DNA of 56,739 bases, counting the filler, from Sluysia triapertura (lineage: Eukaryota): NCBI GenBank assembly GCA_046118255.1. It is 4 parts of 4 records of this genome, joined end to end, with 100 filler letters (N's around TTAATTAATTAA, not from the genome) between each part and the next. Parts side by side here need not be neighbours in the genome. Positions count along the whole stretch, not along the records: positions 43,143 to 56,739 come from JBJNIA010030165.1; 3 more parts are not named here. One strand, given 5' to 3'. The notes beneath the pieces were generated by a model. The model did no database searches. It was given only the letters and a program-made list of their open reading frames with translations, and was not told where the DNA came from. A program made the translations under genes and the position numbers. Positions 4,293 through 56,739 of the stretch are shown here, in pieces; positions within the stretch are counted from its first letter, which is position 1, and every line of letters starts with the position of its first letter.

Positions 4293-4520
4293 AAATTATT
4301 GGATAACAAAGGAGGGCAAACAAAGTACTGATAGAACAGTTTGTACATATTTGATTTGTAGTAAATTGTGCTACCACATTCTGTATGTTTTGGATCTCAG
4401 TATCTTTATCTATTATTTTACTTTCATCAGAATTTTTTTGGAGAAAGTGGTTATTTTCGAACATTTTACATTTTCCTTGGAAAATGTTGAATTATGTCAT
4501 AATATTTTGACCGCCACTGT
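4293..4520 (+). repeat. Dispersed repeat, second copy at about 23400-23605
   Basis: Near-identical blocks AAATTATTGGATAACAA...TTTGTACATATTTGATTT...TTTTGGATCTCAGTAT occur at both loci. Confidence 0.85.
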
Positions 4521-13203: not shown

Positions 13204-14244
13204 TGTTGGGATTGTCCAGTTAGTGCAAGAAAGTAGATAAAATGGCAAAAGAATTTATAATATATATAATGAAAAATGATATAAAATATCTGAAATACGT
13301 TAATATAAACATAATTAAATATTCCTAGAGCAAAATAATGAACAAAACATGTTTATAATCATTTTGAAACCGAAGAACACCTTGGAGTTCCAAAGACCTT
13401 TGTAAGGTATTGAGACCATTATGAAGATTTCAATAAGGTTTGGAAAGATGTCTTGAAGTATGAAGATACCTTTGAACTTCTGAACCTTGGAATCACTTAG
13501 ACCTTGATGATATTTTGGAACATTTGAAGACTTTTGAGGCATTAATAAACTTTTGAAACCTTCAAGTAGCTTTGTAAAATCTTTGGAATCTTTAAAATGT
13601 GCAAGAATTAAAATCATGGTTATTAATATTAAAGATAAATTTGAGACATTAATAATTAAATAAAAAATTTAAAAAAGGAATCAGAGTGGTGAAGGTGAAA
13701 ACATATTATATAACAACTTTTTAACTATAACAAAACCTTTAAACTTAGAATAAAATAAGTTAAAATAATTATTTAATTAATTAAAATCTTAATTAATTTA
13801 AGAAAAATTACGTTTGTGTGAATAACTTTTGAATGAGGGGTGCTATGATAAAATTGTAGCTGTACTTGTATGTGTATTAAAGAGATCTTCCAATGAAGAT
13901 AAGGTCTGACCGAGTTCATGCAAAGAAAGCCTCCATATTGAACAAAGTCGAATTTTAATTAATTTTTAATTTAAAATGCAAAAATTTTTCATTTTTAGAA
14001 TGATAAAAAAATGATGAGTTGGGTATGGAGTGGTTGCTATCAAGTTGGAGAATCCGAAAATTGTTGTTTGGGGATGAGAACCTTAAACATTGAGTGTGAG
14101 GAATTGACATTGTCTGGTAACTGGTTGTATATTTTTGAGACATAAACGGTATATAACTTATTATCACTGTGGATTATGTATAGATTATTATTATATCTCA
14201 ATGAAATATTCATCCTGGCTTCCAAATATTATTATTTATAATAC
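13204..14244 (+). mobile_element. Solo LTR, family L1
   Basis: Begins TGTTGGGATTGTCCA and ends ...TATAATACA. Collinear with 27067-28292 (GGAATCAGAGxGGTGAAGGTGAAAACAT; TGACCGAGTTCATGCAA). Confidence 0.75.
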
Positions 14245-14637
14245 ATATTCAGGGCTTTTTTAATGCAAATATTTGTAGATTATTGTCATGATTTTGAATT
14301 CTCCTCTTGCCTTTTATTAGGCGCTAGAGTGTTAATATAGGATTATAATTCAACGAATAAAATGAATTCGAAGGAATACAGGAATCAGCTCTTAAATTGG
14401 CAAGCGATAACTGTCCTTATCATGCATCCAATGAAAATAAAGAACATTTCTTATCATCTATGATAATCAGTGACGGAAAATGTTTTCAGATGCTTTGTAT
14501 ACAAGTGCACATACGGAAAGTATCAGGATCTTCGAAGCCATCTTTACAAGCTAAAAGATACATCGAAAAAGTAATGTTAGACTTCATAAAATGGACTTCT
14601 CGCTTCACACATGTGCAGTTCGATGCTCTGACCACTG

Positions 14638-20718: not shown

Positions 20719-21734
20719 ATGGAAACCGATGATTCTGAAGTACCTGATGTTGAAGGAATTACAAGTGTTAATTATAATGTTACAATTCACCCTATCGTTA
20801 TTATGAGTGTTTCGGATCATTGCATGAAATTTAAATCAGAAAATTCTCAACTAAAAGTGGTAGGAGCTCTTATGGGTACTTATAAAAGTGCTGACATTGA
20901 AGTAATAATATTAATTAATTTAAAGTTGTAAGATTTTGAAAGTTATAGAACTTTTGTATGAGAACAATAAGTTAAATGAAGAATATCTTAATCAAAGGTT
21001 AGATCAAGTTAAGACTGTTGAACCTGATTTGGAATTCATTGGTTGTTACTCAATTGGTGCTAAGTATGATGAAAGTGATATGGCGATTTTTGAGGTGATT
21101 GTTCTTTAAAATGCTATTAATTCATACAGGTTCAAAGAAGATCTGAATGCATACTTTTATTAAAATTTGATATAGAAAAAATAAGCGGAAATGAGCACTT
21201 ACCAATAAAATTATACGAAGCTGCAAATGATTCTACTGGACACTGTATATTCAAACCAATTAATTACATATTTCATTCTGAAGAAGCTGAGGCTATTGGA
21301 ATAAAGCATATATCTGTGAATAAGCTGACTATTAGCAAAAATGTTGCTGTATCTATGGTAATATTTTGTTGTATAATTTATTTCACTAGATACAAGACCA
21401 TCTTCAACCACATCAACAAGCAATAATAATGCTACAAAATCGTATTGATTATTTAGTAAAATACTTAGAAGCAGTTGAAAACAATGAACTTCCAATTGAT
21501 TATTCAATTTTAAAGGAACTAAATACAATAGTCTCATCGCTACCAATGAGGTGTAATTCTGAATTTCAAAATCAAATTTGCAAAGATACTAATGAAATTT
21601 GTTTAACTAGCTTACTTTCATCTATGGCTCAATCGTTGTACGTAATGCAGAGCTTATTAACAAAACAAACTTATATTGAACGTGATATAATGAAAAAAAC
21701 CCCCAATTTACGATATGATAGTATTTATAATTAA
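20719..21734 (+). CDS. COPS6: COP9 signalosome subunit 6 (MPN- domain); exons 20719-20901, 20933-21094, 21130-21357, 21390-21734; 305 aa
   Basis: Motifs VTIHPIVIMSVSDH, VVGALMG, LEFIGCYS, SEEAEAIGIKHI, DHLQPHQQAIIMLQNRI. Three GT-AG introns of 31, 35 and 32 bp splice to one open frame of 918 nt. Confidence 0.92.
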
Positions 21735-23310: not shown

Positions 23311-23899
23311 GTTAATCAAACATTTGTTAAGTAGCATTATTTCATAGCTTTATTGATTTTTTTAATTTTAATTTATACTTTTTATTTTATTTTACAAGAA
23401 ATTATTGGATAACAAGGAGAGCAGATAAAGTACTGATTTAATAGTTTGTACATATTTGATTTCTAGTAAATTGTGTTATCTCATTCTACATAAATAGAAT
23501 TTCTGTATGTTTTTGGATCTCAGTATTTTTATCTATTATTTTACTTTCACTAGAATTTTGGTGAAAGTAGTTATTTTCTAACACGATAATATTCCGTGAC
23601 AACTGTCGGCAAATGGTATGTATTAAAAAACTTTAATAATCATGTTTGTATGCTATTACTCAGTGTCAATGATTTTATTGGCGCATCATTTGCTTCTTTT
23701 TTGATACATTCTTTTAAAATTTGAGATATTTCTGATTAAGCATTAGTGTTTCTTGATTATTGTCGATAAGTGATTTTGAGCTTTCTTTCAATAAGGGACT
23801 AGTTTTTTCTATTTATAACAAAACCATTCGTATTTATTATATTAGCTCAGTATAAATTACAAGTATTATATTTCTGATTGTTTACTCTATTTCTATTTG

Positions 23900-27066: not shown

Positions 27067-28292
27067 TGTTAGGATTGTCCAACTGTCGATTAGGAGATTA
27101 GCAAGAGATATATAGAATCACAAAATGAAGGAACAGTTGATTGAAATTATAAACATTGTTGGAAAAAGAATCAAAAATAAAAACATCTATAATAATTATA
27201 ACAGCTAAAGAATACCTTGACATTCCAAAGACCTATATAAGGTGTCGAAGCTTGAAGAGGACTTAAAAACCTTTGAAAGAATTAGAATATCTTTGAGATC
27301 ATCTGAGACCTTATTAACCTTTAAGTATTCTTGAAACCTTGATAAGCATCTAAGATTTTTCAGTAATTTTATAAATTATAAATTATACCTTTAGAATATT
27401 TGAGAAATAAAAACAATGTTTAAAGTAATAAAGATAAGTTTAGTATAGTAATAATCAACATGAAGAAGTAGGCAAGGAATCAGAGAGGTGAAGGTGAAAA
27501 CATCTAGAGCCTCCTGAATGCCTTATAAACTACTAAATAACTTTAGGACCTTATTAAAACCTTTAAACATAGAATAGATTAAATCTAAAAATAGATTAAT
27601 TAATTAAAATTTTAATTAACTTAATTAAGAAAAAATACGATTTTGTGAATAACTTTTGAATGTAGAAAGCTATGTTGAATTTGAAACTGTATATGTATTT
27701 GTTTTAAAACGACCTTCCGATGAAGATATGGTTTGACCGAGTTCATGCAAGGAAAACCTTAATATTGAGAAAAGTCAATTTTTAATTGTAGAATGTTGAA
27801 ACTTTTTACATTTCGAATGATGAAATATAATGAATTAAACGTGAGATGATTGCTATGAAAGAGGTGAATTTACAGGTGCGTTCGAAATGTTTGTAGAATG
27901 GTTTGTTTGAGAATAAGAACCTTAAAATATTTTTCATTAAAAAATTAGGTGTGAAAAACCGAAAATTAATCAAATCCTAAAAAATGAAATTAAATTCGTT
28001 ATTTTTGTGTATGTTAATAATATTGTTGATTGCTATTTTAATGTGAGAAATAATTTAAGTAAAAATAGATTAAGTAGAGTAAAAGGAAATGATGGCCGCT
28101 AATAAATCAGATTTCTATGTTTGGTACCTAATGATGTTTGACAGACCGTACCATGTAATTGTCAAAGTTGTTATAGTCGGTCTGATTCTCAAAGAGGTTT
28201 GGATGATTTGTGTGAGAGTGTTTGGTTATGAGAATAGGAATTGATTGGATGATCAAAGTGTATAAAATAAAAATTTATATATTTTTACAACA
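27067..28292 (+). mobile_element. Solo LTR, family L1 (about 1.2 kb)
   Basis: TGTTAGGATTGTCCA...TTTTACAACA termini (TGTT/AACA). Purine-rich 5' half and G/T-rich 3' half. No clean target duplication. Confidence 0.78.
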
Positions 28293-36880: not shown

Positions 36881-38309
36881 TTATACTTTTCTAACGAACA
36901 TTTTAGTCAGGTACCGTAATTTTAAATTAAACTTTTACAAAAATCGATTAAATAGATTAAATCGATTAAATCGATTAATCTCATTATATTTTATTATTAA
37001 CTATTTACCGTTATTGTGTATGCATATTTTTTTAGTATCGATAATATGATTATATTGGAATTTTTGTTTAATCATTGAAAATTTGTTGTAAGGAACACCG
37101 TTTTTAATGCGGACGAAAAATTTTTTCAGAAAAGCTGAGTTTTTAATTATACCGTAGTAAAATCTTACATAAAATACCAAATATTATTAATTAAAGAATC
37201 AATTACAAACAAGTTTAAGATTTTATGGTAAGTCTCCACTGATTATTCTTGCCGATACCTACAAGCTAGCCCTTAAGTGTATAAGTCTAGGATCGTAGGG
37301 TATTCACGAATCATATACTTTAAACTGACAAAATTTTCACTTTATAAAATGATTCGTAAATTCGATAAAAGTCTAAACTTTATAAAACTTTAATTGATCT
37401 CTAAACTACTTTCACTTATTATGCAATATTAAAACTTTATAATTGGTTGCTTTTAAGTGTTTAACTTTTAATTAATCAAATATTTTCTAAACCTAAAATA
37501 AATTATCCTTATATGTCTTTGATGTTAAAAATCGAAGTGAGAAACAAATAATTATATTTTAATAATTATAAAGTTATAATTATAATTTCCAAAGTTATAT
37601 TTTAATATACTGTCAATTTCAATTATTGAGGAAACTAATTTTATTTCTTTAAAATAATTTAGGATATTGTACTTACTCATAATATGTTTATCAATGTTTC
37701 TAGCACAATATTCAAAATAGTTATCAATTTTCTAAACACACATTTAATCAATTTACTGTGATTTACTATGAAACATACCTTTGTATAGACTATTTTTCAT
37801 GAGAATTGTACCACGGCCAAAAGTTCTTAACTATTTTCGTATAATTAAACATCAACTTTACCCTATAATCAAATATAAAAATATAATCCTATTCTATATA
37901 TATTTTGCAATTATACGACCAATTTCTTCTATATTATAACTTTGACTATGTAATTTATTTATATACATATAATTTATTTATTTATGTTTATTATTTATAT
38001 TATATGCGTATGCTATTGTTTATTCTTCATTTCTATTTTTACATATATGTAACATTTTTCTTCAATAAATATATTATTAGTTTACATATATTTTAAATAT
38101 TTGTATTTTTAAGCTTTTCTTGGCAAATTTTATTTAAATTATTCTTTATCTTATTATTATTATTGACAATATGCAATAAAAAATAATAAAATATCAACTG
38201 ATCCATGATAGGTTTGTTGTAAACCAATCATCTGACTTCATTTCATTCAAATAATTTTATTATATAAAAAACATTTATAAAACTAAATTTTCATTTAAAT
38301 TAATTAATA

Positions 38310-39968
38310 ATGTTACTCAGTAGGATAATAATTTTCATTTTATATGTTAAGTATGTTAAATTAAAATCCAATGATTATTTATTTACAATAACTGAAGAAC
38401 AAGAACCGTTTTATTTGATTTCAAAATTTCCACCGAAATCCACCAATCACTTTTTGCCTGACGATAATTATCATTTTTCATTAATTTCCAAACAAAATTC
38501 AGTATTAGATTTGTTACAAATTGGCTCTACAAATGGTCAATTACGTACACGTGAAAAAATCAATCGTGACACACTATGTCAAACAAAACAGCTATGTTGT
38601 TTAACAAATGATATTTGTGAATTGAATTTCCATGTAATTATGAAACATGTCACTAAAACATCGAATATATTTTACTATCGTTGTATGTTAATAATTAAAG
38701 ATATAAATGACAATAAACCTCAATTTTCATCGGATTATTTTTTAGTAAAAATTTCAGAAAATACTAAATTAGGAACACAATATTTATTACCATCGGCAGA
38801 AGATAATGATTTTGGAATTAATTCTATACAAAGTTATCGTTTAGATTTAATTGATAATGAAAACGGTTATGCACGTGCATTTCGATTGGTTCAAAAAATG
38901 ATTAATCATAAATTGCAACCAATGCTAGAAGTTGTATCTGGTACTTTGGATCGTGAATTACAAAGTGAAATTAAATTTAAACTTTGTGCTAAAGATGGCG
39001 GTAATCCAGCATTAGAAAGTTGTACTAAACTTGAAATAAGTTTAGAAGATGTTAATGATAATCGACCAATAATTGAGCGAGCTAGTTTGAATGTACTTTT
39101 AAACAGTTCAGCAAAAAATGGTGATTTTATTGGTCAAATTAAAGCTACGGATGCTGATTTGGGTCAAAATGCGAAATTAAATTATGGATTTAGTGATTTA
39201 GCAACAGAATATCAACGTGGATTAATACACATTAATTCAGAATCTGGTCGTGTTCAGTTAATAAAGAACTTAGTGGATTTAGATGCATCTAGTAACATTT
39301 TAATGATTCCTATTAAGGTTTGGGACTCTGGAGAACCTTCTTTATCCACAAGTACAACTCTGTCTCTTACTATTTTGCAAAGTAACAACTTTCCACCGAC
39401 AATCGATATAAAACCTATCAGTGATGTATCTTCTAAACATCCTCTTGCATCAATTTACGAAAATCGACCTCCAGGTCAAATAATTGGTTTTGTTTTTGTA
39501 GAAGACAAAGATAATCAAGAATTTGGATTATTCGATTGTTATTTGCTTGATGAGAAATATTTCCGTCTCATTTTAGAATACGATAAAGTACATCGCAATC
39601 AAAAGGAATACAAATTGGAATCTGTGGAAAGTTTAGATCGTGAACAAATCGGACCAGTAATACAACTGAAAATAATTTGCAAAGATCGTGGTATACCTGA
39701 AAAAGTTGCCGAAAAAGTTGTTTCAGTTAATATTTTAAATTTAAATGATAATCCACCAATATTTCAAACTAATTCTTTTAATGGACCAATAGAATTTTAC
39801 GTTTCCGAAAGTCATCCTGTAAATACTATGATTGGTCAATTAAATATTACCGATTTAGATGACAAATATGCATCCATTGATGGTAAAAAATCGAAAATTA
39901 AATGCTCCTTAAAAGATAATACCGGGTTATTGTACTATGTATTATTTATAATCATTAAGAAGTTATAA
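38310..39968 (+). CDS. Protocadherin, large first exon (signal peptide plus EC1 to part of EC5); 3' end not found
   Basis: N-terminal hydrophobic leader; repeated cadherin motifs DINDNKPQF, LDRE, DVNDNRP, ATDADLGQN, LNDNPPIF; EC1 motif NRDTLC...C typical of protocadherins. Confidence 0.9.
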   Translation: MLLSRIIIFILYVKYVKLKSNDYLFTITEEQEPFYLISKFPPKSTNHFLPDDNYHFSLISKQNSVLDLLQIGSTNGQLRTREKINRDTLCQTKQLCCLTNDICELNFHVIMKHVTKTSNIFYYRCMLIIKDINDNKPQFSSDYFLVKISENTKLGTQYLLPSAEDNDFGINSIQSYRLDLIDNENGYARAFRLVQKMINHKLQPMLEVVSGTLDRELQSEIKFKLCAKDGGNPALESCTKLEISLEDVNDNRPIIERASLNVLLNSSAKNGDFIGQIKATDADLGQNAKLNYGFSDLATEYQRGLIHINSESGRVQLIKNLVDLDASSNILMIPIKVWDSGEPSLSTSTTLSLTILQSNNFPPTIDIKPISDVSSKHPLASIYENRPPGQIIGFVFVEDKDNQEFGLFDCYLLDEKYFRLILEYDKVHRNQKEYKLESVESLDREQIGPVIQLKIICKDRGIPEKVAEKVVSVNILNLNDNPPIFQTNSFNGPIEFYVSESHPVNTMIGQLNITDLDDKYASIDGKKSKIKCSLKDNTGLLYYVLFIIIKKL

Positions 39969-43142: not shown

Positions 43143-43219
43143 CTCATCAATTCTTCCTTCATTTGTAATTCTATATATTTTTTACTCGTCTCTTAATCTA
43201 AAGCTGGGCAATCCCAACA
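43143..43219 (-). mobile_element. LTR family L1 5' end
   Basis: Reverse complement begins TGTTGGGATTGCCCAG. Confidence 0.8.
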
Positions 43220-43400
43220 TTATTATCATCAATTTTATTTTCGCCATTTTTTTTCAATTAAAGTATCAAATTATTTGGTAACAACCACTACCAGTGGTAA
43301 CTCATTGATTTACAATTACAGTCAATGTCACCAATTACAGTCAATGTCACCAATTACAGTCAATGTCACCAATTTCAGTCAATGTCACTAAAGTGTGGAG
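43220..43400 (-). mobile_element. Cassette promoter/hairpin remnant (copy I), including a 19-bp tandem repeat x4 at about 43312-43388
   Basis: Reverse complement GTTACCACTGGTAGTGGTTGTTACCAAATAA...GATGATAATAA resembles copy A GTCACCATTGATAGTAGTAGCTACCTAAATAA...GTGATAATAA. Repeat unit CAATTACAGTCAATGTCAC. Confidence 0.5.
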
Positions 43401-43659
43401 GGCCATACATAGCTAATCTTAACTTCTAACATGTAATCATTTAATTTTAAAAAAGTAAATTTAATTAAAATAAAACAACTAGCTAACTTTAATTTTAAAT
43501 TTAACAACAAGGGCTTAAGGCCCGAAATGATTAAAAAGAAACGTATAATTAAAACATTTAAATAAACGACAAGATTTATTAACATGAAATTCAATAAGTA
43601 TATTGGATGTAAAGTTTTTAATAAAAACAAAATAAACAATAAACATTGAACAGACAAGA

Positions 43660-43810
43660 ATAAGTAACCATAATCAACAATCTTAGAGCAAACATAAAAT
43701 GTTAGGAGCATCACAAAAATAGCTACACTTTCATCGTCATAGTTTCCCGATGTACTTCGACTTAAATGCCCAGAGACAAAGAGAATGCAAATTATTGCAA
43801 CGAATTTACT
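43660..43810 (-). pseudogene. STT3 oligosaccharyltransferase fragment
   Basis: LFVSGHLSRSTSGNYDDESVAIFVMLLTFYVCSKIVDYG matches the STT3 motif [27 protein letters not shown] as recalled. The flanking translation is unrelated. Confidence 0.75.
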
Positions 43811-45899
43811 AAGACAATTATCATTATTTGACGTAGTACTGTTACTAAAATTGAATGATTTAATTGAGTATTTTCCCAAATTTCAAAATAATAATGTAAA
43901 ATAATTCAAATAATTCAAAATAATAATGATGTAAATTCAGATAATAATCAATAAATAATCAGTTCATAATTAACAAAGTACACAATTCATTAAATTCAAA
44001 TAATAATCAATAAATAATCAGTTTACAATTCATAACGTACAAAGTATTTACAATAATAATAATAATTTAAATAATATTATATTTAATATAAAATGTAAAT
44101 ATTATTAAATTTAATATAAAATTTCGTATTTTAAATTTTGCATTTGTAAATATTGAATTTTATGTAATATTAAAATTTGTGTTGCAATAATATTGTAAAT
44201 ATTAAAACTAAGAATTTAACATTAGTTAATTATACATAATATTTATTTATGTAAATAATTAATATTTATCTGAAATTTTATAATCTATAAATTTATTCAC
44301 GCGAACCGAATCATAAATAATTAGCGAAAATTGATAATTAAGTAATTAAAATCTATGCGAATCAAATCACTAATAATTCGTAAATATTAATAATTAATTA
44401 ATTACTCAATATATGAGTGACATATTCTCCTTTTATATATAAACTAAATAAACTTTAAAAAGGAACACACGAAAAAGTCATTAAAAACGGTTCTTACACC
44501 TAGAAAGGTTATTCAAAACAAAGCCGCTGAACAACTATACAAAAATTTCTTTGGTAATATACTGCGAATTTTGATTAGAGATTCAACGAAATCAATCAAA
44601 TCTTTCAATTATCAAGACAATTCATTCGTTTATTTGGAATCTTTTATAAATAATGATCCAAAATAAGTAAGCGTGTTATTGATAAGTTTAGAATAGATAT
44701 TTTGCATCAAAATCTGAGCTAAAATCTTTGTGAAATTAAAAAATCCAAGCATTCGCCTGGATCAAAATCACTGTTAAAATAATATTTTATTTTAAGAATA
44801 AGAATAAGTTTCATTTATAATTTTTATTTTACATATTTATTATAAAGAATAAAATCAAATATTTTTAACCTGTAAATAATTTTTAATTTTAATTTTATTT
44901 GTAAATTTGTAGAAATTCTACTTTTTAATAAAATAATTATTTGTAAATTTGTATAATTTAATTCTAATAAGAACTTTCATATTTTATATTTTAAACTTGT
45001 AAAAGAATTGTATTTTAATGGACACATAAAAAAATTCATGTAAATTTAATGCCAGCAAAAATAATAAAATAATTATAAAATAACTATAAAATCTTTTCTC
45101 ATAAAAACAGTTAGCATATATAAAGAGGTTATTGGTATGGAAGTTTGATAATAATCAAGAGCACTATTTTGAAAGTTAATCGAAAGGATATTCATTTAAA
45201 ATTTTTCCTGGAATCCGATCATTGGATATTAATTTAAATTATCGTGGAATCTGATCACTGGATATTGATTTTCATTGGAATCTTTTGGTACATATTTGAT
45301 TAATTGGTATTTCGTAATTCGGAGATATTTAAATTTTTTGGAGTCATTAATCAACGATTGAGAAATTTATAATTTTGGACATATTGAAATATGAGAATAC
45401 GTAAGTTGATAATTAATAGGCTTTCACACTGATAAACTTTGTGTTAAAATCAGACGTAAAATTTTATAAATTTATTGCCAAGTATCATACCTGGATCAAT
45501 TAAATTTATAAATTTTAACATCAAATAAAGCTTAAAATCTTTATTTTTAAAAAAATATTATATTATATATCATTTTTAATTGCATATTATACGTTTAATT
45601 ATTTTTCGTTCGTTTTGTGTAATAAAAATTTAGTGTTTCGTAATTTTGTTTATTTGCAGTATAATCTAAAGAGAGTTAACATTAACAAGAGAGATTTAGC
45701 ATTAAGACTTGAAGTACAAATTTTGAATTAAGTGTATTAAGAATTTAAATATAACTATTTACTTCTTGTTAAAAGGGAAATATCGAGTCAATAGTAAAAT
45801 TTTGAGTACGTTAAAGTAACATTTAAATAATAAGTTAATTGCGAAATTTAAAGATATAAGTAAGATTTCAAAGGAAAAAAAGGTTATTTAAAGGATTCA

Positions 45900-48330
45900 C
45901 TTATTTATAAGATACTGACCCTCGCTGTTCTTTTGATTTTAAGGTACGTTAATTGTCAAATCTGTAGTTGCGTCCTCGCTCAGATATAAAGCGTAATATA
46001 CAGACGAACTCGTTCTTTTTGAAAAATCATAATAGTTAGTTTTTATACAGAAGAAACCTAACATATTTACCAATGTTACGTAGCAAACTTTTATACTAGT
46101 TTAATAAATGCAATAAAGACTCAAAATTTGTTAGGTTTATTGTGATTTTATTTTTATTAACATTATGATCTTTATGTTTGGTAATTAATGAATTGTTATT
46201 ATTACATGTATTATTATTACCTCTATCATTTAGTATATTATAAAAATTCATATAAACTTTTAAACAATTACGATTACAAAAATGGTGCTTAAGGAACGTA
46301 ATAGATATATTGTTAAACAAAATATTTATAATATAATAACACAACATAGATTTATTTATTGTCCACAAAATTGGATTTTTAATCACACATAGTTATAGTA
46401 AGTAATATTAAATAAACAACTTTGACATCCTAGACGATTTGTCGCTCCAAATGGTACATGATTACTAGGCCACAGAATAATATTCAAGTTAGTTGATAAC
46501 ATTTCCTTATGAGTAGATATAACAGCTTTCTGACTGTCCACATGTAGGTGATCCATGGTTCTACAATTCTCTAGTACATATATGTTAATGTTGTCTGAAA
46601 CCATCGCATAAGGAGAAATGTAATTTAAGACTATAACGAGGTTTGTGAAAAATAACTGATAGTAAATATTCAACATAATAAGTATATTGCGTATAACTCA
46701 TAAAAATCAAAGAACATATAACACCTCTAAAACTATTAACATAATTCGAATGAATCTTATTAATTTTATAAAATTTAAAAATTAGCACAATCGTATTACT
46801 TAATTTATCGACATATTCTAATTTTAATTCGATATAAAGACCTTCATAATTCTTAAAGATTAAAATATATTTAAGATTAAAAACTTTAAAATTCAAACTA
46901 AAAACATTAAGCTTTAAAATAAAGTTAAAACTAATAGGTTTTAGAGATTTTAAAATGGTCCATATACTTTGAGATGTAGCATTTTGTATTAAAATTTCGA
47001 GACTTAATATAAAATTAAAAATGACTTTCGGTGAGAACAAAAATTCAAAATCGGTCAATGCATTTTCGAAATTATACAAAACAAAAGTAACAAAATTGTT
47101 ATTCCTAATCTTAGACATAGATTCACAGTTATATCCATTTATATATGTTTGTATCCAAATGTTTTTAACATTAATGTCATTATGAGTACATATGGCATTA
47201 TCAAATAAATAATATATAGTTGACATAATCTGAGATCATCTTTATTAGAGCTACTTCTTTACTTTCACAAGTGCTGTTTTGTTTTAAACAGTTTTCAATG
47301 TAATGATAAATAGAATACCCAAAAGGATATTCTAATTACTTAACAACTGATTGAAATTCAGTCCAAGTTCGGTAATACTGAGAAATGTATGGATGTCTAA
47401 CTTTTGATAACATTTCGATTACCACTTACATCTAAAACATGCATATCATTTTCTTTAAAAGGTAGTTTAAATATAAGCGTACATGTACGAATATTCAGAA
47501 GCAATGAATTACGAATAAAATATGATGAAAATCGTTGAGAATTTTTAAATGTCTGTTGATCAATCTCATCGAAAGTGCTATCTGCATCACTTGAAATTCC
47601 GTTGATTTTACTCGAAGTAGCATCTTTAAAAAATGGTATTTACTTGAACCAGATTCATCTGATGTAAAATTCCATGTTTCATGGATTCCAGGATCATATG
47701 TTATTTTTTCAATCATTTCAAAAATTTTTGAATTTTTTCTTGGCTGAGTATTTTAAAACATATCTTTGGAGTACATCGTTTATTCTAGCTCGTACTGTTT
47801 CCAAGATATGAACAGCGAGATATTTCCGTTCGACTTCCTTCTATAATAACTTGATGCATTATCTTCATTATCATCATCAGCTTATCTGTTTAATATTTCA
47901 AATTGTTCCTAAATATTTTAATTTGTCATCATAAAATACCTAATTAATAACATTTTTATCTAAAGTCAACAATCTCAAAATTTTTTAAATAATGATTTTA
48001 ACACTTAATATTTAAACAAATAGCATCTTTTTGTTAACTACAATAATTTTCATTGGTTTATTTGATATACATTATCACCATTATCATCATAATCATCATC
48101 CTTATCGTCATCACATTTAAATTCACAGATCTTTTCATTGGTCAATAATTCATTTGACAGTGAAATACATTTTTGCAAATAAAATTAACATGAGTCATCT
48201 AATATTTAACTTTAAATCCCATAATGTTTAACAAGTAAAATTACTATTCAAAATGATAAAAGATTTCAAGCCTAAGATGCAAACATTTTCTCTATTAATC
48301 AAGTTTACCGAGATTTTAATGATTTTATAA
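45900..48330 (-). pseudogene. Cluster F of fragmented intronless orphan ORFs, possibly cassette cargo lacking its promoter/tail
   Basis: Consecutive same-strand ORFs 47716-47495, 47226-46585, 46676-46383 and 46386-46096, with Cys pairs near the end. No family recognised. Confidence 0.35.
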
Positions 48331-48602
48331 CGTTTTTCACATATATAACTTATTTAAACATCCAAATAAATTTTGTCTTGTTTATAATATCGGGAATTAA
48401 ATTGTTTTTGGTTGAGATAAGAACTATTCGAATATTGTTTGATTACTTTCAACATTGTAGCAATAACCAGTTCTACAATGGGTGCAAAGCATTGTTACAC
48501 TTATATCTAATCGTTAGTACATTTTGTTTAAATTGTTCTATATTAATCGGAGTTTTTAACGTTATTAATAAATTTTTTATCATAAAAAAGAAAAAGTCCG
48601 CC

Positions 48603-49344
48603 CTACATTATAATATTAATATGTGTAGGTATTTTATACTTAACAATTTTTCCTAACTTTGTACCGGTATAAAGCCATTTGTTGTTATTTGCATAATTTA
48701 TGATGCGGACAGGTATCTTTCCTTCACAATTATTACATACTGCACTTGATATTCCTATATCTAACTTTTTTTGATTATTTTCTGATGCAATAAACATAAT
48801 ACTGCCGGTTAATTTGTTTTAGCTGGAATTATATAATCACTTCTTTTTAATAACCAAAGTGGTTCGTCTATGTATATATCATCATCAATAGTTCTTTTTG
48901 ATCAACTTTCCATCAACCTTACTTGATCAAAATCTAGTGTAATTACTTTTAATTGTGACAATATATCCATTCCCATTACCATTTCTTCTGGACATTTTTT
49001 CATAACTCTGAATTTAATTTCTTAATTATTTTAATTTAGTTTAACTTAATTTAATTTCTAACTATTTTAAAAATAGATTTCATTACACCAATTATATTAA
49101 TCTCACCATCAGTAACTCCCGATAAATGGGACGTGTGACTGGCAAGACTTTTTAATTCGTCTTTAGTTGATAAATTTTCATTAATCAGAGATGCTACTTC
49201 TCCCGTGTCTATTAATGCTGAGACCAATCTATCATTTATTCTGATATTTACCATTGGTCTTTTTGAGTTATTGTAGTTGTTATTTGCACATATCATATTC
49301 ACTACGTGGTGGTAGTGACGTTTGAGTGATAGTATATATTCCAT
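48603..49344 (-). mobile_element. Retroelement aspartic protease and downstream pol linker (degenerate)
   Basis: RPMVNIRINDRLVSALIDTGEVASLINE carries the retropepsin DTG. IPVRIINYANNNKWLYTGTKLG resembles the Ty3/gypsy post-protease linker. No RT is seen. Confidence 0.85.
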
Positions 49345-49408
49345 TTTTCTTTCTTTAGCTATTTGACTTTCTATTACTTTTTGATTTTCTACAATTTCTT
49401 CATTTTCA

Positions 49409-51300
49409 TTATTTTATATTTAATGTAAAGCTATATTTTCTGTTTGTTGTCTCTCTACTGTCCGCTGTCTCTCTTTCCTTAATGCGTTTATTTGTGCATT
49501 TGCATGATGATGCAAGAGATCTTTGGCTAAAAACGTAAAACATGATTATTTTATAAAAAAATTCTGAAATTTTATAGATTCCAATTACTGAAAAAACTTG
49601 AGAAATTATCAACACTATTACTTTAATTATTATATAAATTCCTATCAATACGGATAACACTCGATCCAATATTAAAAGTTTTCCCCATATGTGTTTTCAT
49701 GTATCTCGTATGGGTCTTTTAAAGTGATTAGATGTCAATAATAATTCGAAATTTAGTTTTCCATTCTTATCAACTGTTGCTTTATCTACAATTTCTGTTA
49801 ATATTTTTGATCTTTTTATTGGAAATAATATTTCTCGCCAAGCTGCTTATATATCATCGTTGGTGTAAATACCAGAATTAGGTATACTTTTCATAGCTAG
49901 AAATTTTAATTTTCCTTTTAGTTCGGTTAATCCTATAATTTCTGGAGTTTTCACTTGACTTCTATGTGGTAACAATATCCATAAATTGTCATCTGTTCTA
50001 TATTCTGGTGCCATGACATTAGAGAAATTCATTAATTTTGATTTAACTTTATTATTTGGAAAAATTACTTTAGTTACCGGTTAGAGGTATATTTCTACGT
50101 TACCATATAATATAAGTAATTCATTTGTGCACTCGGTGGTCGACTTTAATTACACTTCTACTTTTTTTCACTTATACGTGTATAATACTTCTTCTATCAA
50201 TCGACCGAATACTTCTTCTTCCAATGGAAGTAATGATGCGACTATATCCCGGTTTTTAATAGCCACTGCTAATTTGTCCGGAAAATTTCCTTATATCCTC
50301 TAAAAATAATTTTATTAATTTTATCTAATGATATTAAACCTAGATGGTATTAAAAAGGTGTTTAATTTTTACATTTTTTGTGTGTACTCCTTTTTTATCT
50401 TATTGTATTGTTTTTTCTGAGGAATAAATTCCTTGATAGTTTGTTTCTGTTATTTCTTTTCCGAAACGAATTACTGTTCCCTTTGAGATAAAAATTAAAC
50501 TATCTTCTTCTCTACTTCCCATTAATATTGTTGGGGTTTCAACTTTTTTGTACATTATCAATATTATTTGTCCCTAACTGATTTTGTTTATTTCATTTAT
50601 TGGATATTTATCTTTATCTTGATATATGAATTCGGATACCATATTAAATTTATTTTAAAAATATTAATTGGCACTGAAATTTGTCCAACTCATAAATAAA
50701 TATCGATTCTCCTATGTCAAAGCTAGTTTGACCAATTTTGCAGTTGATCATGTTATCATTGTTCTTTTTGCCATGTCAAAACTTTCGTTAAATAATTTTA
50801 AACTCATGACATATCTCCTGTGCGACAGCATTAAGGTAAATTTTTCCTTCATATTCTATTGTTCCTTGTTCGCAAATTCCTTCTATTAATACGTTACCTA
50901 CGGTTCTAATGTTGTACATTATTACCTATTTTTAGCTTATCTCCTTTGTACTTTTATATCCTGTTTCAAGTGCATTCCTACATTGTTTAGGTAATATTTT
51001 AAATGGTTTAAGTGCATTTGACAATTCTATTACTGATGAGTGACTATGATGACCACAATATCAAATTTCTAATGATTGTTTTACCATAAATTCTCTAATT
51101 AAAGATGTCACTAAATTTCCCTCTTGATAAACATTCATTAATTTAGTGTCTTTTATGTGTATTCGATTTGGCCTTGACTCACGGGAATCTTCGTGTCCAG
51201 TAACGAAAATTTTCTACCTATTTGCGGTTGGCTGCAATCAAATGCTTTTATTGCATTAGTCCTGTTTAAACCGAACATAGCTAACAGTATTATTCGTTGA
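49409..51300 (-). pseudogene. env: Envelope glycoprotein, chuvirus (Jingchuvirales)-like, degenerate
   Basis: In order: signal peptide plus IKAFDCSQPQIGRKFSLLD; YCGHHSHSSV (51034-51060); KQCRNALETG; SGIYTNDDI*AAWREILFPIKR; HIWGKLL...LIGIYIIIKVIVLII TM region. This matches chuviral-type G motifs as recalled (GYDC..SLLD, YCGMHSH, SGIY...IMFP). Confidence 0.8.
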
Positions 51301-51889
51301 GTTTCCTATTCTTGGTATAGCTGCATATTGCCGCTATTGCCGAATAGTTGTGACATTCGATTAGTCGGCTACTTTGTTTTTTATTTTATTTTCCTTTTAT
51401 TATGTTTCTTCATACCCCTTGTTCTTCAATCCATAATTTAGTTTTCTTATTAACGAAATCTATAACTTTATATATTTTGCTTTTTGTAATCATCCTCTCT
51501 TTACCACATTGATATATAAATTACGCTAAAATTATTTTAAATTTTTCCTAATCTATTACTTTACTAATTTGCTTACTTATTATTAAATTATACTGTCCGG
51601 TTCTATAAAATCACTAATGTCTTTATCTTTACATCTTTCTTCAAACTGCTTTGCTAACCTATTTAAAGACACTATAATCCTTTTATACCTCTGGTAGTAA
51701 CTTCTTATATTTACTAAAAATACTAAATTTGTCTGACAAGAAGATATAAATTACTCACATAGTATCTATTTCAATTTTTTCACCATCATTTCCAAAATCT
51801 ATTTCCGATAAATCGATAGTAATTCTAACAATCGGAAGAGGCGTTGACATTGTATCATTTTCATTTATTACTGGGCGACCAGGCCTTCT

Positions 51890-53683
51890 TTTTGTTGCAT
51901 TCGTTTACCCACTATATTTGTTCGTGTAAACCCTCTAACATTTCCACCTGAATTCATGTAATTTCTTCCTGCATAATTATTTCTTGGTGTAAAATTATTC
52001 GAATTTCTTCTATTATTTCATCGAAAATTATTATTACTGTTGAAACTATTATTCTCAAAAGAATTCTTATACTTATGCTTAAGGGGTTCACCAGAACTAT
52101 TTTCTATATTCTTATTATCATTATATAACTTGTATTATTTCTTTCTTCATTTCCAGTTCGTTAAATACTTCTTAATTTCTTAACTATATCCTTAAATATA
52201 TCAGAATTGGATGTTAGACTTAACTTTTAGACGTAACGCGTAACAATTCCACTTCACATTAACTGAACACATCATATGTAACAAATTTTCTTTTGTAAAT
52301 ATCGTCTGCTATTTTTATTATATTTAATTTTTAAATATTATATTTATTATAATTAAAAATATTACAAATAAATTATTATGATCAAACATATATTATAAAT
52401 AAAAGGAATATATTCTTAAAATTAAAAAAATATAAACAAAAATATTTATTACAAATAAAATGAACTTATTGTTTTAATTGATTAAAATTATAAATATAAA
52501 CAATATGGCGGAATTCACATTATATAATAAATCAAAATTATTGGGATTTACGCAAACGGATTTTCACAAAAGTTCTGTCAACAATAATTCATCGACATAG
52601 GATTTCAATTTTCATGCAGAGGTAAATTTTTTAGTAGGTTTTTGAAGAACTCTAATCTTAATCGCTAGAGTTTATAAAATTGTACTTAAAATCTGATCTT
52701 TTATCTTAGACCGTAACTGGCTAGGTTAACATTTATCTAAACTCTAATTTTAAGAAACAGCTAAGCCTTAAGCTTAAATTTATTATTGTTATTATAATTT
52801 TTATCGATTTCATACGTTTTTTTGTAGATAATGTATCTTTAAATAGTTAGATATGTTCTTAATCAAGCTAATTAAAATATTTATTTAACAGACCGTAAAA
52901 AGGTTGATTCAATATTTAAAATCTTATATCATATTGTCAGACCATACAAAGGCTGACTTAAAATATATAAATAGTAAAAATTAGATAAAAAAAGTGTTAC
53001 ATTTTGAATTCTTTTTAAAGATACAAACGCTTTTACGCATTTATCTTATGCGGAATAGTAAAATTAAGTAAATTTTTACATTGGAAAATTCTAATTAGAA
53101 CGTCTCCGACCAGGTATAAAACATATCTAATTAGTCTAACCGAACCTCTCGATATTTTTGTAAGTAAAAGTTTAAGTTTATAAACAAAATAGCAAATGGC
53201 AGGTTATCAATTAGACTTACATAAATTCGTAATTCGGGACGTAGTCCATTTTTAAACTTATCTATTAATGTAGCTTCATTCTTATCTTCTGAAATTTTAG
53301 CTCTTGTTGCTAAACTTTTAAGTGCGCAAGCATACTCTTAAGCAGTTTCATTAGGTTTCTGTTTCCTTATATTAAGCATTTTTGCATAATATTTACCAAT
53401 ATCTTCTAACGCTATTTCTTCGATAAAGTATTCCAATCTCGTTTTATATTCGTTTCCTATTTCTTTATAAGTCTGTACTGCTACAATGGTCGAATAATAT
53501 CGAATTCTTTTAATTTTATCTAATTCTGTCCAGCCGTTTGCTTCGGCTATATTATCACATTCAAATAAAACGTCACAAAGTTCCTCTTCGGCGCCATTAA
53601 ACTTAGGAATTTCAGCAAGTATCACCATTTGTTTGAGTCAATAGAGACATATAGTCTCTAAATTCATCAAGTGGAACTGTCAT
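51890..53683 (-). mobile_element. gag: Ty3/gypsy-type gag (degenerate), split by a 988-bp insertion
   Basis: IPKFNGAEEELCDVLFECDNIAEANGWTELDK...RKQKPNET...FKNGLRPELRIYVSL, resuming TSNSDIFKDIVKKL after the insertion, then an N/R-rich tail. Confidence 0.85.
52223..53210. mobile_element. Non-coding insertion with 9-bp target-site duplication
   Basis: TTAGACTTA at 52214-52222 and 53211-53219. Removing the insert restores the gag frame. Confidence 0.85.
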
Positions 53684-54049
53684 TTTATATTATTCTAATG
53701 AAGTACTTCTTTAAGTTCTCTTAGGTTTCTTTAGTTTTATCTGTATTATTATTTTTATCTATTCTTAAAACTAAAACATAAATGTTAACAATAAAATTCA
53801 ATTACTTATCGAAATTAATTCAAACTTAAAACTTAAACATAAACTTAACGATAACTTAATTCTATACAATTCAACTTAATTCACAACTAATAAAATCGGT
53901 AAACAAAAAAATCCAACTTTTAACAACTTAAGACTTAAATAAATAACTTAGATAACCAAAAACAAATAAGTTTACCTCAAAAGCTTAAATTAATACATAA
54001 CCTATATTGAAGAGCGATGTTCAAGATAAAAGGTCCACACTCAATAGGC

Positions 54050-55532
54050 ACCTCTTCTTCTGAATCGATATCCACTTCTTCTGCACGTAATTCTTCGTCA
54101 TCTGTTTGTCTGGTTACATCATTTTCTATATCTTGATAATCTCTCTCAATAGATTTCTCCTGTAAATCTTTTTCTAGTGTTTCACTTCTTCTGTGTTACT
54201 CAGTTCACTTTCTTTATCATTCATTTCTTCTTCTGTACCACTCGTTTTTCTGCTTTATTCTGTTTCTGGCTGTCTTTTTCTTCTCTTTCTTCTTGTTTTC
54301 TATCTTTCTTGAATTCACGATATCTGTCATGCATATAACTCATAAAGACTTATTATTGTTTATTTTTGAATCGATTTTTATCACAATCTAATACTGTGAT
54401 ATAGAATTCTCGTAACGTAGCATTCTTTTCTTCATCTGTTATCAATTTTGAGTAGTCAGCATATTCTTCGCTACTAGATTCTTGTCTTCTTTGTTCCTTC
54501 TTATTATTCTTTCTACTTCTGTTAGGTTCTTCTTCGTCTTCGTAATATTCATCTTCATATTGATATTGATCTTCGTTTTCGTTGTACTTTCTTTGATCAC
54601 AATTTATTTGACCCTTCTCATTTTTATTATTACTATTATTAAACCTTACTTTCCTATTAGAGCTTTGATATTTTTTGTTGTTGAGGGCCCTCTACCTTAG
54701 AGAAACCCTGACTAAAAGTATTTTGTTTTAACTTACCACAATTTCTTGTAGACTGCCCATATTTATTACAATTATCACTTCGCATTTCCCCATCAGTATT
54801 GGTTTGTGCCTTATCATTATATCTATTCGGACTTTTATTTCGACCTCGATAATTATTTATATTTGTATTTGGTGGCCATCTTGGTGCTGATCTCTGTTCA
54901 TAATTTGTATACCATTTCGATTTTCTGTGTTATTTTGAAATCTTCTTGACTGAAAATTATTTCCTCTACAATTATTAAAATTTCTTTGATTACGCCTATT
55001 ATTAAAAATAGTAGAAATAATTACTATTATTTCTATTTTAGTTATTACTTCTATTATCATTATATTCGTTATCACTATTATATTCATTATAATTTAAAGA
55101 ATCATTCTTATCATAATTATTACATTGATTATCAGAATTAGCGAATTTATTTTTAGTAAGTTTTGGGCTTTTACTTTCATTATCACTAATATAATTAATA
55201 TTATCTTTATCTTTTTTATCTTTATATAAAGATTTTTCTGCACTTATTAATTTTTTAACTAAATCTTTGAAAGGTACTTCTTTAATTAAAGTAACATGAG
55301 TTCTTAATCCAGGACGTAAACTAATCATTTCTTTTTTATCTTCAGCAATCTTTGCTCTGTTTACTAAATTTTTTAATGCGCATGCAAATTCGTGAACTAT
55401 TTCATTAATTTTTTGCTGTCTTAAATTTAGCATTTTAATATTTTCCATATCATCGAGGGCGATCTCTTCGGTAAATGCATTAGCAAAAGAATTCCAAGTT
55501 GCTTTATCTTGGAATGCGAACAATAACAACAA
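54050..55532 (-). mobile_element. gag: Second gag copy with degenerate CCHC knuckle and acidic downstream region
   Basis: AFTEEIALDD...RQQKINEIVHEFACALKNLVNRAKI...LRPGLRTHV is homologous to the first gag. MRSDNCNKYGQSTRNC at about 54740-54790 is a decayed zinc knuckle. Confidence 0.8.
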
Positions 55533-56023
55533 CAGTAATGTTTCGATATTGAACGATTCGAAGTTTTGATGACTTTTAAGATGATGATTTTTTTAAGTTA
55601 ACTTTTTAAAAGTATTCTTATTATTGTTATTATTGTTATTCTTCTTATTCTTGTTTCTGTAGCTTCAATTATGTCTATAGCTTATGATATGTAAATTTAT
55701 GTGGTAAAGTTTAATTCAAACTGAATCTTACTCAAAATTGCATTAGTGCATGTAAATATGTTTTAGAAAATGTAGAAACAGGTGAGGCAGATGAGGAAGC
55801 CGTTAAAATTATGAGATCATATTACGCGCTCAAATTACTGTACATGTGACTTTACTGATATATCGACATTATTCTCTGAAAAAGATTCATTAGATGGTTT
55901 AATTACAAAAGAAAGTAATTGTAATCAATAAAGAAAGAATATGCAGAAATCGCTCAATATAAAGCTGAAGTATAAATTTGAAAGAAATTAAAATAAATTT
56001 AAAGTAACAAATATAAAGTAATA

Positions 56024-56415
56024 CTGTAAAATCCCGAGCATAAGCTGCAGCTAATATGTGCATAAAGGGAACATTTTTGAATTGCAGCTAATATGATGTG
56101 CAGCTTATACAACTAAAAAACAATTCAATTGAAGTAAGATTATTTATTTATTTCAATTTTCAACATCACACTCCTCAAACCATCACACTTTTCATTGTCA
56201 ATAAAAGTGAAATTTTCTAGTAACTTACAAGGCCATAAAAACTGCAATTTTGGATCAGACTCGTTCATATTCATTTCATTTTCTTCAATTTCAAGAACAT
56301 CAACGCAAATGGTGCAGCTAATACTTGTTGCAGCTTATGCGACTAAAAAATACGCTTCCATAAAAACGTTCTCTGCAGCTAATACGCGCTGCAGCTTATG
56401 CTCGGGATTTTACAG
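56024..56415. mobile_element. pogo/Tc1-type MITE
   Basis: Perfect 28-bp TIR CTGTAAAATCCCGAGCATAAGCTGCAGC, with TA duplications at 56022-23 and 56416-17. Confidence 0.92.
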
Positions 56416-56739
56416 TAATCAAGCCGCAAGAATATTTTTTCAAGTGGGAAGAAGATCTCATGTAACACCTTATCTTATGGAATTACATTGGTTGCCTATA
56501 AAAGCAAGAATAGAATTCAAAATCATGACAATAATTTACAAATGCTTAAATTACGAAGTCCTGGATATCTTTTAGAAATAATATAAAAATTTGGAAACCA
56601 AGAGGAATATTTAATTGAGACATAATAATCCATGCAGAATCCACAGTGACAACAAGCTAGCTGATAGGTTGTATACCGTTTGTCTCAAAAATATACAACC
56701 AGTTACCAGAGAATGTCAAATTACTGGAAGATTATGAAA
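56416..56739 (+). mobile_element. LINE (L2/CR1-like) ORF2 C-terminal remnant
   Basis: NQAARIFFQVGRRSHVTPYLMELHWLPIKARIEFKIMTIIYKCLN; LHWLP is the hallmark motif. Confidence 0.85.

Follow-up and report, generated by a model that had tools for sequence, protein, structure and literature searches.

Does the order gag-env-protease, seen in a decayed retroelement of Sluysia triapertura, reflect the native organization of an enveloped long terminal repeat (LTR) retrotransposon, or was the envelope (env) gene brought between the two others by accident? The element lies on the minus strand of contig JBJNIA010030165.1 (positions 43143-56739), the last of four contigs joined via N spacers in the window, by which we mean the whole stretch of DNA analyzed here (56,739 nt, assembly GCA_046118255.1; G+C content of about 25%). 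A sequence-only reading of this DNA had proposed an enveloped Ty3/gypsy lineage with env between gag and protease, perhaps expressed as a gag-env-pol polyprotein. With a probability of roughly 0.9, we read this copy as a dead, 3'-truncated member of a high-copy, Burro-like Ty3/gypsy element, namely, an errantivirus with a chuvirus-like env of the herpes simplex virus (HSV)/gB type. As part of the same explanation, the native order would be gag, [AT-hook, Bcl-2-like], env, protease (PR), spacer, reverse transcriptase (RT), RNase H (RH), and integrase (IN). The odd gene order is real, yet it has been described previously.

The features of the locus are as follows.

53194..53683, minus strand: gag capsid-like core, broken (Pfam and tblastn); frame change near the start and one stop at 53340
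52194..53193, no strand: 1,000-base non-coding insert in the gag of this copy; skipped at the joint 52193-53194 by 8 contigs of run X1
51895..52193, minus strand: C-terminal part of gag and Asn-rich spacer (translation); no intact CCHC knuckle
51872..51892, minus strand: AT-hook-like motif KRRPGRP (PGRP at 51883); no profile match
51400..51770, minus strand: probable Bcl-2-like domain (kin profile), decayed and spread across two frames; outer limits set by eye
49444..51310, minus strand: chuvirus-like (HSV/gB-type) env, broken; short hydrophobic signal-like stretch, ectodomain, transmembrane helix at 49660-49604, and cytoplasmic tail
48947..49260, minus strand: retropepsin, broken; LIDTG at 49215 (DTG at 49212), Pfam RVP
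48620..48946, minus strand: post-protease spacer, in which the element is cut off before RT; position of the Burro dUTPase-like domain, labeled by position alone
54040..55510, minus strand: second gag-like fragment upstream, with Asn-rich and acidic tracts (similarity to the first gag)

Gene order and state of the copy

Gag, env, protease, and spacer follow one another on the minus strand of one contig, and Pfam and tblastn matches bear out the order and strand proposed earlier. The gag core (53637-53194) matches Pfam Retrotrans_gag at an E value of 0.0027, below the curated cutoff, and is found by tblastn in intact relatives (P0008, E = 3e-11; P0277, E = 9e-11; P0274, E = 4e-10). The span 53683-51890 had been read as gag; a gag is present there, but it is not continuous, as the 1,000-base insert (52194-53193) lies inside it. 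No CCHC knuckle pattern was found in any of the three minus frames from 51200 to 55700. Asn-rich tracts like those at 51895..52193 also occur, by eye, in P0008 and P0013. The insert itself is AT rich, with no terminal repeats noticed and 33 bases similar to 27600-27631; no other long copy of it was found in the window.

The suggestion of a chuvirus-like envelope gained a glycoprotein profile match, since the env region hits Pfam PF24664 (Monjiviricetes_fusion) at an E value of 7e-28 (97 bits versus a cutoff of 27). Tiles of the region are collinear with a profile built from 14 intact relatives, running from position 10 to position 644 of 699, and the transmembrane helix (49660-49604) has a mean hydropathy of 3.0. 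The glycoprotein was thus rightly placed in its full extent, but neither its intactness nor its proposed end (51300-49409) holds. At least four frame changes (near 51190, 50640-50550, 50350-50275, and 49545) interrupt it, and the longest frame (50275-49541) contains five stops in 245 codons. Because env homology downstream of 49545 is read in the frame of the protease, where two stops come ahead of the DTG, 49409 lies in a shifted frame and is not the true env end. A phmmer search of the env piece against PDB sequences returned nothing under an E value of 0.2.

The protease matches Pfam RVP at an E value of 9.5e-4, slightly under the cutoff, and its tblastn matches are the proteases of P0276, P0277, and P0274. 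Spacer and protease together are collinear with P0276 (joint E = 5e-18) and P0277 (joint E = 2e-15); no Pfam match to a dUTPase was found in the spacer (48620..48946). The element stops near 48600, ahead of RT, and its gene order is observed in this copy only as far as the post-protease spacer. Summed contig depth in run X1, which is not a copy number, is 24,000 to 100,000 across env and protease versus about 200 in the flank, and drops from 41,634 to 189 near 48552. This run is probably the source sample (its pieces show no differences) and so is not independent. The depth profile fits a large, diverged family.

Evidence from kin on the env-protease junction

Relatives were collected with HMMER in a full scan that used one env frame as the query and gave 271 proteins at E values of ≤0.001; the best 150 of the 271 were listed. 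Pfam domains were assigned in 28 kin, comprising 17 of these 150 (chosen as long or top ranked) and all 11 new matches from a second search. When longer relatives of the env piece were sought by word index, 1,852 candidates came up, none at an E value of ≤0.001, although the full HMMER scan did detect relatives. Among viral contigs, 13 pattern matches were obtained and none was confirmed.

The best env match is 44% identical. Across the nine best relatives (35 to 44% identity), a Pfam protease stands behind env in seven; for all scanned kin, a protease follows env in the same protein in 21/28 and an RT in 13/28. Five of the 28 have no Pfam protease (P0004, P0008, P0017, P0018, and P0112), with a DTG motif present in P0008. 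The nearest kin continue in the order PR-RT-RH-IN. At the DNA level, one of two metagenome loci (L002) carries a single frame of 3,703 codons that runs from gag to integrase, with knuckles, a BH2-like motif, env, PR, RT, and IN. The polyprotein foreseen by the sequence-only reading is therefore demonstrated in kin, not in this broken copy, and kin support the enveloped Ty3/gypsy assignment.

The phylogeny of env agrees with this picture. A tree was built from the window env frame plus 60 rows, the best scoring among 135 with good coverage (out of 161 examined; P0063 and P0282 fall outside the 60); it places the window env in a clade with support of 100/95. Of the 26 rows in this clade, 19 are labeled env-protease by motif, compared to none of the 31 rows across the split. 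From where the transmembrane frame ends, the DTG follows after 110 amino acids here and after 81 to 175 amino acids in 14 of 22 kin.

These comparisons bear on the possibility that nested insertion or deletion placed either a solo chuvirus-like glycoprotein (an endogenous viral element) or the 3' env of a gag-pol-env element between a gag and a protease of unrelated origin. The contig is indeed a patchwork, with a second gag fragment upstream, a 1-kb insert, and a truncation before RT, and among the contig pieces listed none spans env and protease. Against this, gag, env, protease, and spacer all match P0274, P0276, and P0277 in the same order, the env tail and the protease share one frame with kin-like spacing, and the depth is still high over the junction bin (28,724). 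Single-frame kin already largely refute such a juxtaposition, which we regard as very improbable. The junction is not unique to this copy but common to its nearest kin, and the outcome of a nested insertion or deletion, by which the sequence-only reading would have fallen, did not occur. Judged by sequence comparison, the junction is not a nesting accident.

A BEL/Pao element that carries a chuvirus glycoprotein, as the mosquito element Anakin does, would have an env of the same family (PF24664). The capture of a chuvirus env is best known from Anakin (PMC7642597), and two Pao-type proteins with env last (P0282 and P0139) occur among the 28 kin scanned. These two score only 14 and 44 bits, versus 142 to 207 bits for the env-first gypsy kin in the top nine, and the gag and protease of the window match gypsy-type kin. 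We therefore give a BEL/Pao origin hardly any credence.

Several relatives show further peculiarities. P0001, P0006, P0272-P0274, P0278, P0279, and P0281 have two to several protease-like copies, some of them behind the integrase, and P0001 and P0007 have, by eye, a long terminal extension that includes a hydrophobic stretch. Extra open frames of 222 to 496 codons lie behind the polyprotein in both metagenome loci (L001, 10617-12107, plus strand; L002, 11375-12043 and 12085-13473, plus strand).

Region between gag and env

The roughly 600 bp of decayed coding sequence noted earlier between gag and env resolves into two parts, a motif of the AT-hook type and what is probably a Bcl-2-like remnant; the sequence-only reading had missed the latter. 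The motif KRRPGRP (51872..51892) is presumably an AT-hook. Six of 22 kin (P0001, P0003, P0006, P0272, P0275, and P0277) have a similar motif ahead of env or of the Bcl-2-like domain. A zinc-knuckle reading of the DNA near 51890 was dropped, as it needs frame changes and lacks key residues, whereas KRRPGRP is read in an open frame.

A helical domain lies directly ahead of env in 6/22 kin. A profile of the pre-env segments of six kin, which contained no sequence from the window, ranked 51637-51416 first among 1,620 six-frame tiles (E = 0.0015; next tile, E = 0.033); an earlier three-row version of the profile gave an E value of 0.047. The segment 51637-51401 contains seven stops. A BH2-like motif stands about 60 amino acids ahead of the AFDC of env here, compared to 53 in P0002 and 51 in P0017. 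Taken on this profile and motif evidence, the pre-env segment is probably Bcl-2-like.

Within the same element class, the gag-to-env spacer could instead be an unrelated, decayed helical linker that does not derive from Bcl-2. The E value of 0.0015 was reached against a small, home-made profile, the frames of the window have no Pfam match, and the domain is lacking in 16/22 kin. The top tile nevertheless falls at a place fixed beforehand, the spacing from the BH2-like motif to AFDC is kin-like, and a BCL2-like motif immediately ahead of env is published for Burro (PMC6431247). An unrelated linker is accordingly the unlikely case, and we retain the Bcl-2-like assignment in what follows.

Points that weigh against a Burro-like element

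Several results run counter to a Burro-like reading with a Bcl-2-like domain. On the side of the domain, Pfam Bcl-2 matches are weak in four of the six kin that have it (E values from 2e-5 to 0.06, all under the cutoff), and the window's own frames in this region give no Pfam match at an E value of 10. Predicted models of two kin pre-env segments are poor (pLDDT of 49 and 56). The Foldseek rows listed for these models are all Bcl-2 family, but with E values of 0.16 or worse and none at ≤0.001. On the side of the element, the window yielded no ubiquitin-like domain (E = 2.1 for the best of 2,268 tiles), compared to its detection in 13/22 kin. The distance from the gag start to env is about 480 amino acids here (without the insert), versus 1,228 to 1,365 amino acids in four long Bcl-2-bearing kin, and Burro is a far longer element. 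Finally, five pol queries against the window gave nothing better than an E value of 0.9, and no RT, RNase H, integrase, or LTR pair was found in it. The Ty3/gypsy status of the copy consequently rests on its kin.

Other searches were neutral. A wide structural search with the second Bcl-2-like model listed generic helical hairpins only (best Z of 8.3 over 60 residues); Bcl-2 was not among them, which excludes nothing. An ESM Atlas search with part of P0017 gave a best score of 0.77 and no named match. Neither an LTR-sized nor any long direct repeat was found in the contig, where the copy is truncated, or within L001 or L002, both of which may end inside the element.

Comparison with known elements

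Burro (GYPSM1) denotes giant Ty3/gypsy elements (over 30 kb with their LTRs) of dugesiid planarians, and their description gives the layout gag-BCL2-env-PR, with env in frame between gag and pol, and notes decayed fragments for Dugesia japonica (Arkhipova & Yushenova 2019, PMC6431247). By that published description, the present element resembles Burro in its order of gag, probable BCL2-like domain, env (mononegavirus-like), PR, and spacer and in its high copy number. Unlike Burro, this copy could not accommodate MATH, BIR, or ankyrin blocks and has no LTRs or pol. All four long Bcl-2-bearing kin have the ubiquitin-like domain, and P0277 carries the published domain list of Burro (ubiquitin/PF11976, Bcl-2-like, env, ankyrin, and PR). 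Since neither the ubiquitin-like domain nor the long accessory region was found here, we file the element as Burro-like and not as Burro.

According to a recent survey, errantiviruses of Platyhelminthes, Nematoda, and Bryozoa have an HSV/gB-type env only and the order GAG-ENV-POL (Chary & Hayashi, eLife 2026, PMC13524379). The element described here resembles them in gene order and env type, both of which are present in the window. Supplement 1 of the survey contains nine flatworm elements, six of them in S. mediterranea, at 1 to 215 copies. By eye, the window env has the short motifs VYQE, CGxHSHS, and TNYxGI in common with the six S. mediterranea C1a env rows of the survey; they are not shared with the bryozoan and nematode rows displayed. 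The survey kept intact elements only, and this broken copy would fail its filters; the term "Bcl" is absent from its main text. The novelty implied by the sequence-only reading is thus lost, as a 2019 paper had already described an in-frame env between gag and pol in planarian Burro (PMC6431247) and the survey reports the order GAG-ENV-POL in three phyla (PMC13524379).

Anakin, a mosquito BEL/Pao element, is similar in placing a chuvirus-like glycoprotein in an LTR retroelement (Dezordi 2020, PMC7642597). It differs in its Pao backbone; the two Pao-type proteins found here have env last and are distantly related, and the window itself does not qualify as Pao type. Troyka was also considered and set aside as unrelated, going by the accessible part of its description (PMC12440569).

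Neighboring features

The upstream gag-like fragment (54040-55510) is 52% identical to the gag of the element over 81 amino acids (E = 5e-18) and matches the gag of P0274 by tblastn (E = 2e-6). It is probably the separate remnant of a related element but may also be an upstream accessory frame. It is followed by a T-rich spacer, and its summed depth is high in run X1. The T-rich spacer ahead of gag (53726-53766) belongs to a short repeat family (D15, D20) that also occurs at 23414-23540 and 4309-4428; these repeats are possibly untranslated or LTR remnants.

Farther along the contig, a perfect inverted repeat of 30 bases, spanning some 400 bases in all (56022-56417), resembles a miniature inverted-repeat transposable element. 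Adjoining it is a repeat of very high depth (56418-56739; 756,000), with a related copy at 14104-14322. The plus frame of this repeat ends in HWLP, which we take to be a motif of the C termini of long interspersed nuclear elements.

On other contigs, a cadherin-repeat exon (38304-39965, plus strand; Pfam E = 1e-26) matches generic animal cadherins at 22 to 31% identity, and a COP9/eIF3-type C-terminal piece (21390-21731, plus strand; Pfam MitMem_reg, E = 2e-17) is presumably COP9 subunit 6-like. Because of these two pieces, we regard the host as an animal; it is AT rich and probably a planarian. Several other open frames of 160 to 360 amino acids in the window have no Pfam match.

Proposed working and implications

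This copy performs none of the functions proposed here for the polyprotein; they would apply to intact members of the family. Going by sequence features and by what is generally known of membrane polyproteins, gag would be made in the cytosol. The internal signal-like stretch would then thread env into the endoplasmic reticulum (ER), where signal peptidase could cut env free, and the transmembrane helix would stop transfer and leave protease-RT-IN in the cytosol, tethered to the env tail. The protease would in turn free PR-RT-IN from that tail. The Bcl-2-like domain may dampen or delay apoptosis of the producing cell, and, as a further guess, the cleaved env signal might serve as the tail anchor of the Bcl-2 part.

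A more specific proposal is that of a compact lineage, high in copy number, in which the ubiquitin/MATH/BIR/ankyrin cargo of Burro was lost or never present but a Bcl-2-like domain was retained directly before env, with the cleaved env signal acting as the C-terminal anchor of a Gag-Bcl-2 product, like the tail anchor of cellular Bcl-2. We consider this doubtful as it stands; if true, it would describe a retrotransposon with a working viral-style Bcl-2 as a core module. The tail-anchor idea was not found in the literature searched, a search that Grohme 2018 and Repbase lay outside. The compactness itself may mark a small lineage or an internal deletion in this copy. What could be new is the compact gag-Bcl2-env layout alone; a deletion in this copy would explain the layout equally well, and Sacco 2022 and Grohme 2018 may already describe compact forms.

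As the gene order has been published already, this copy adds little to it. It would gain in interest if its host lay outside the flatworms. Should the compact form prove to be a genuine lineage, its modest value would be to offer a minimal gag-Bcl2-env-pol polyprotein and thus a simpler subject for two questions raised for Burro: how a single polyprotein is divided between the two sides of the ER membrane and whether host cell death is blocked by the Bcl-2-like domains of retroelements.

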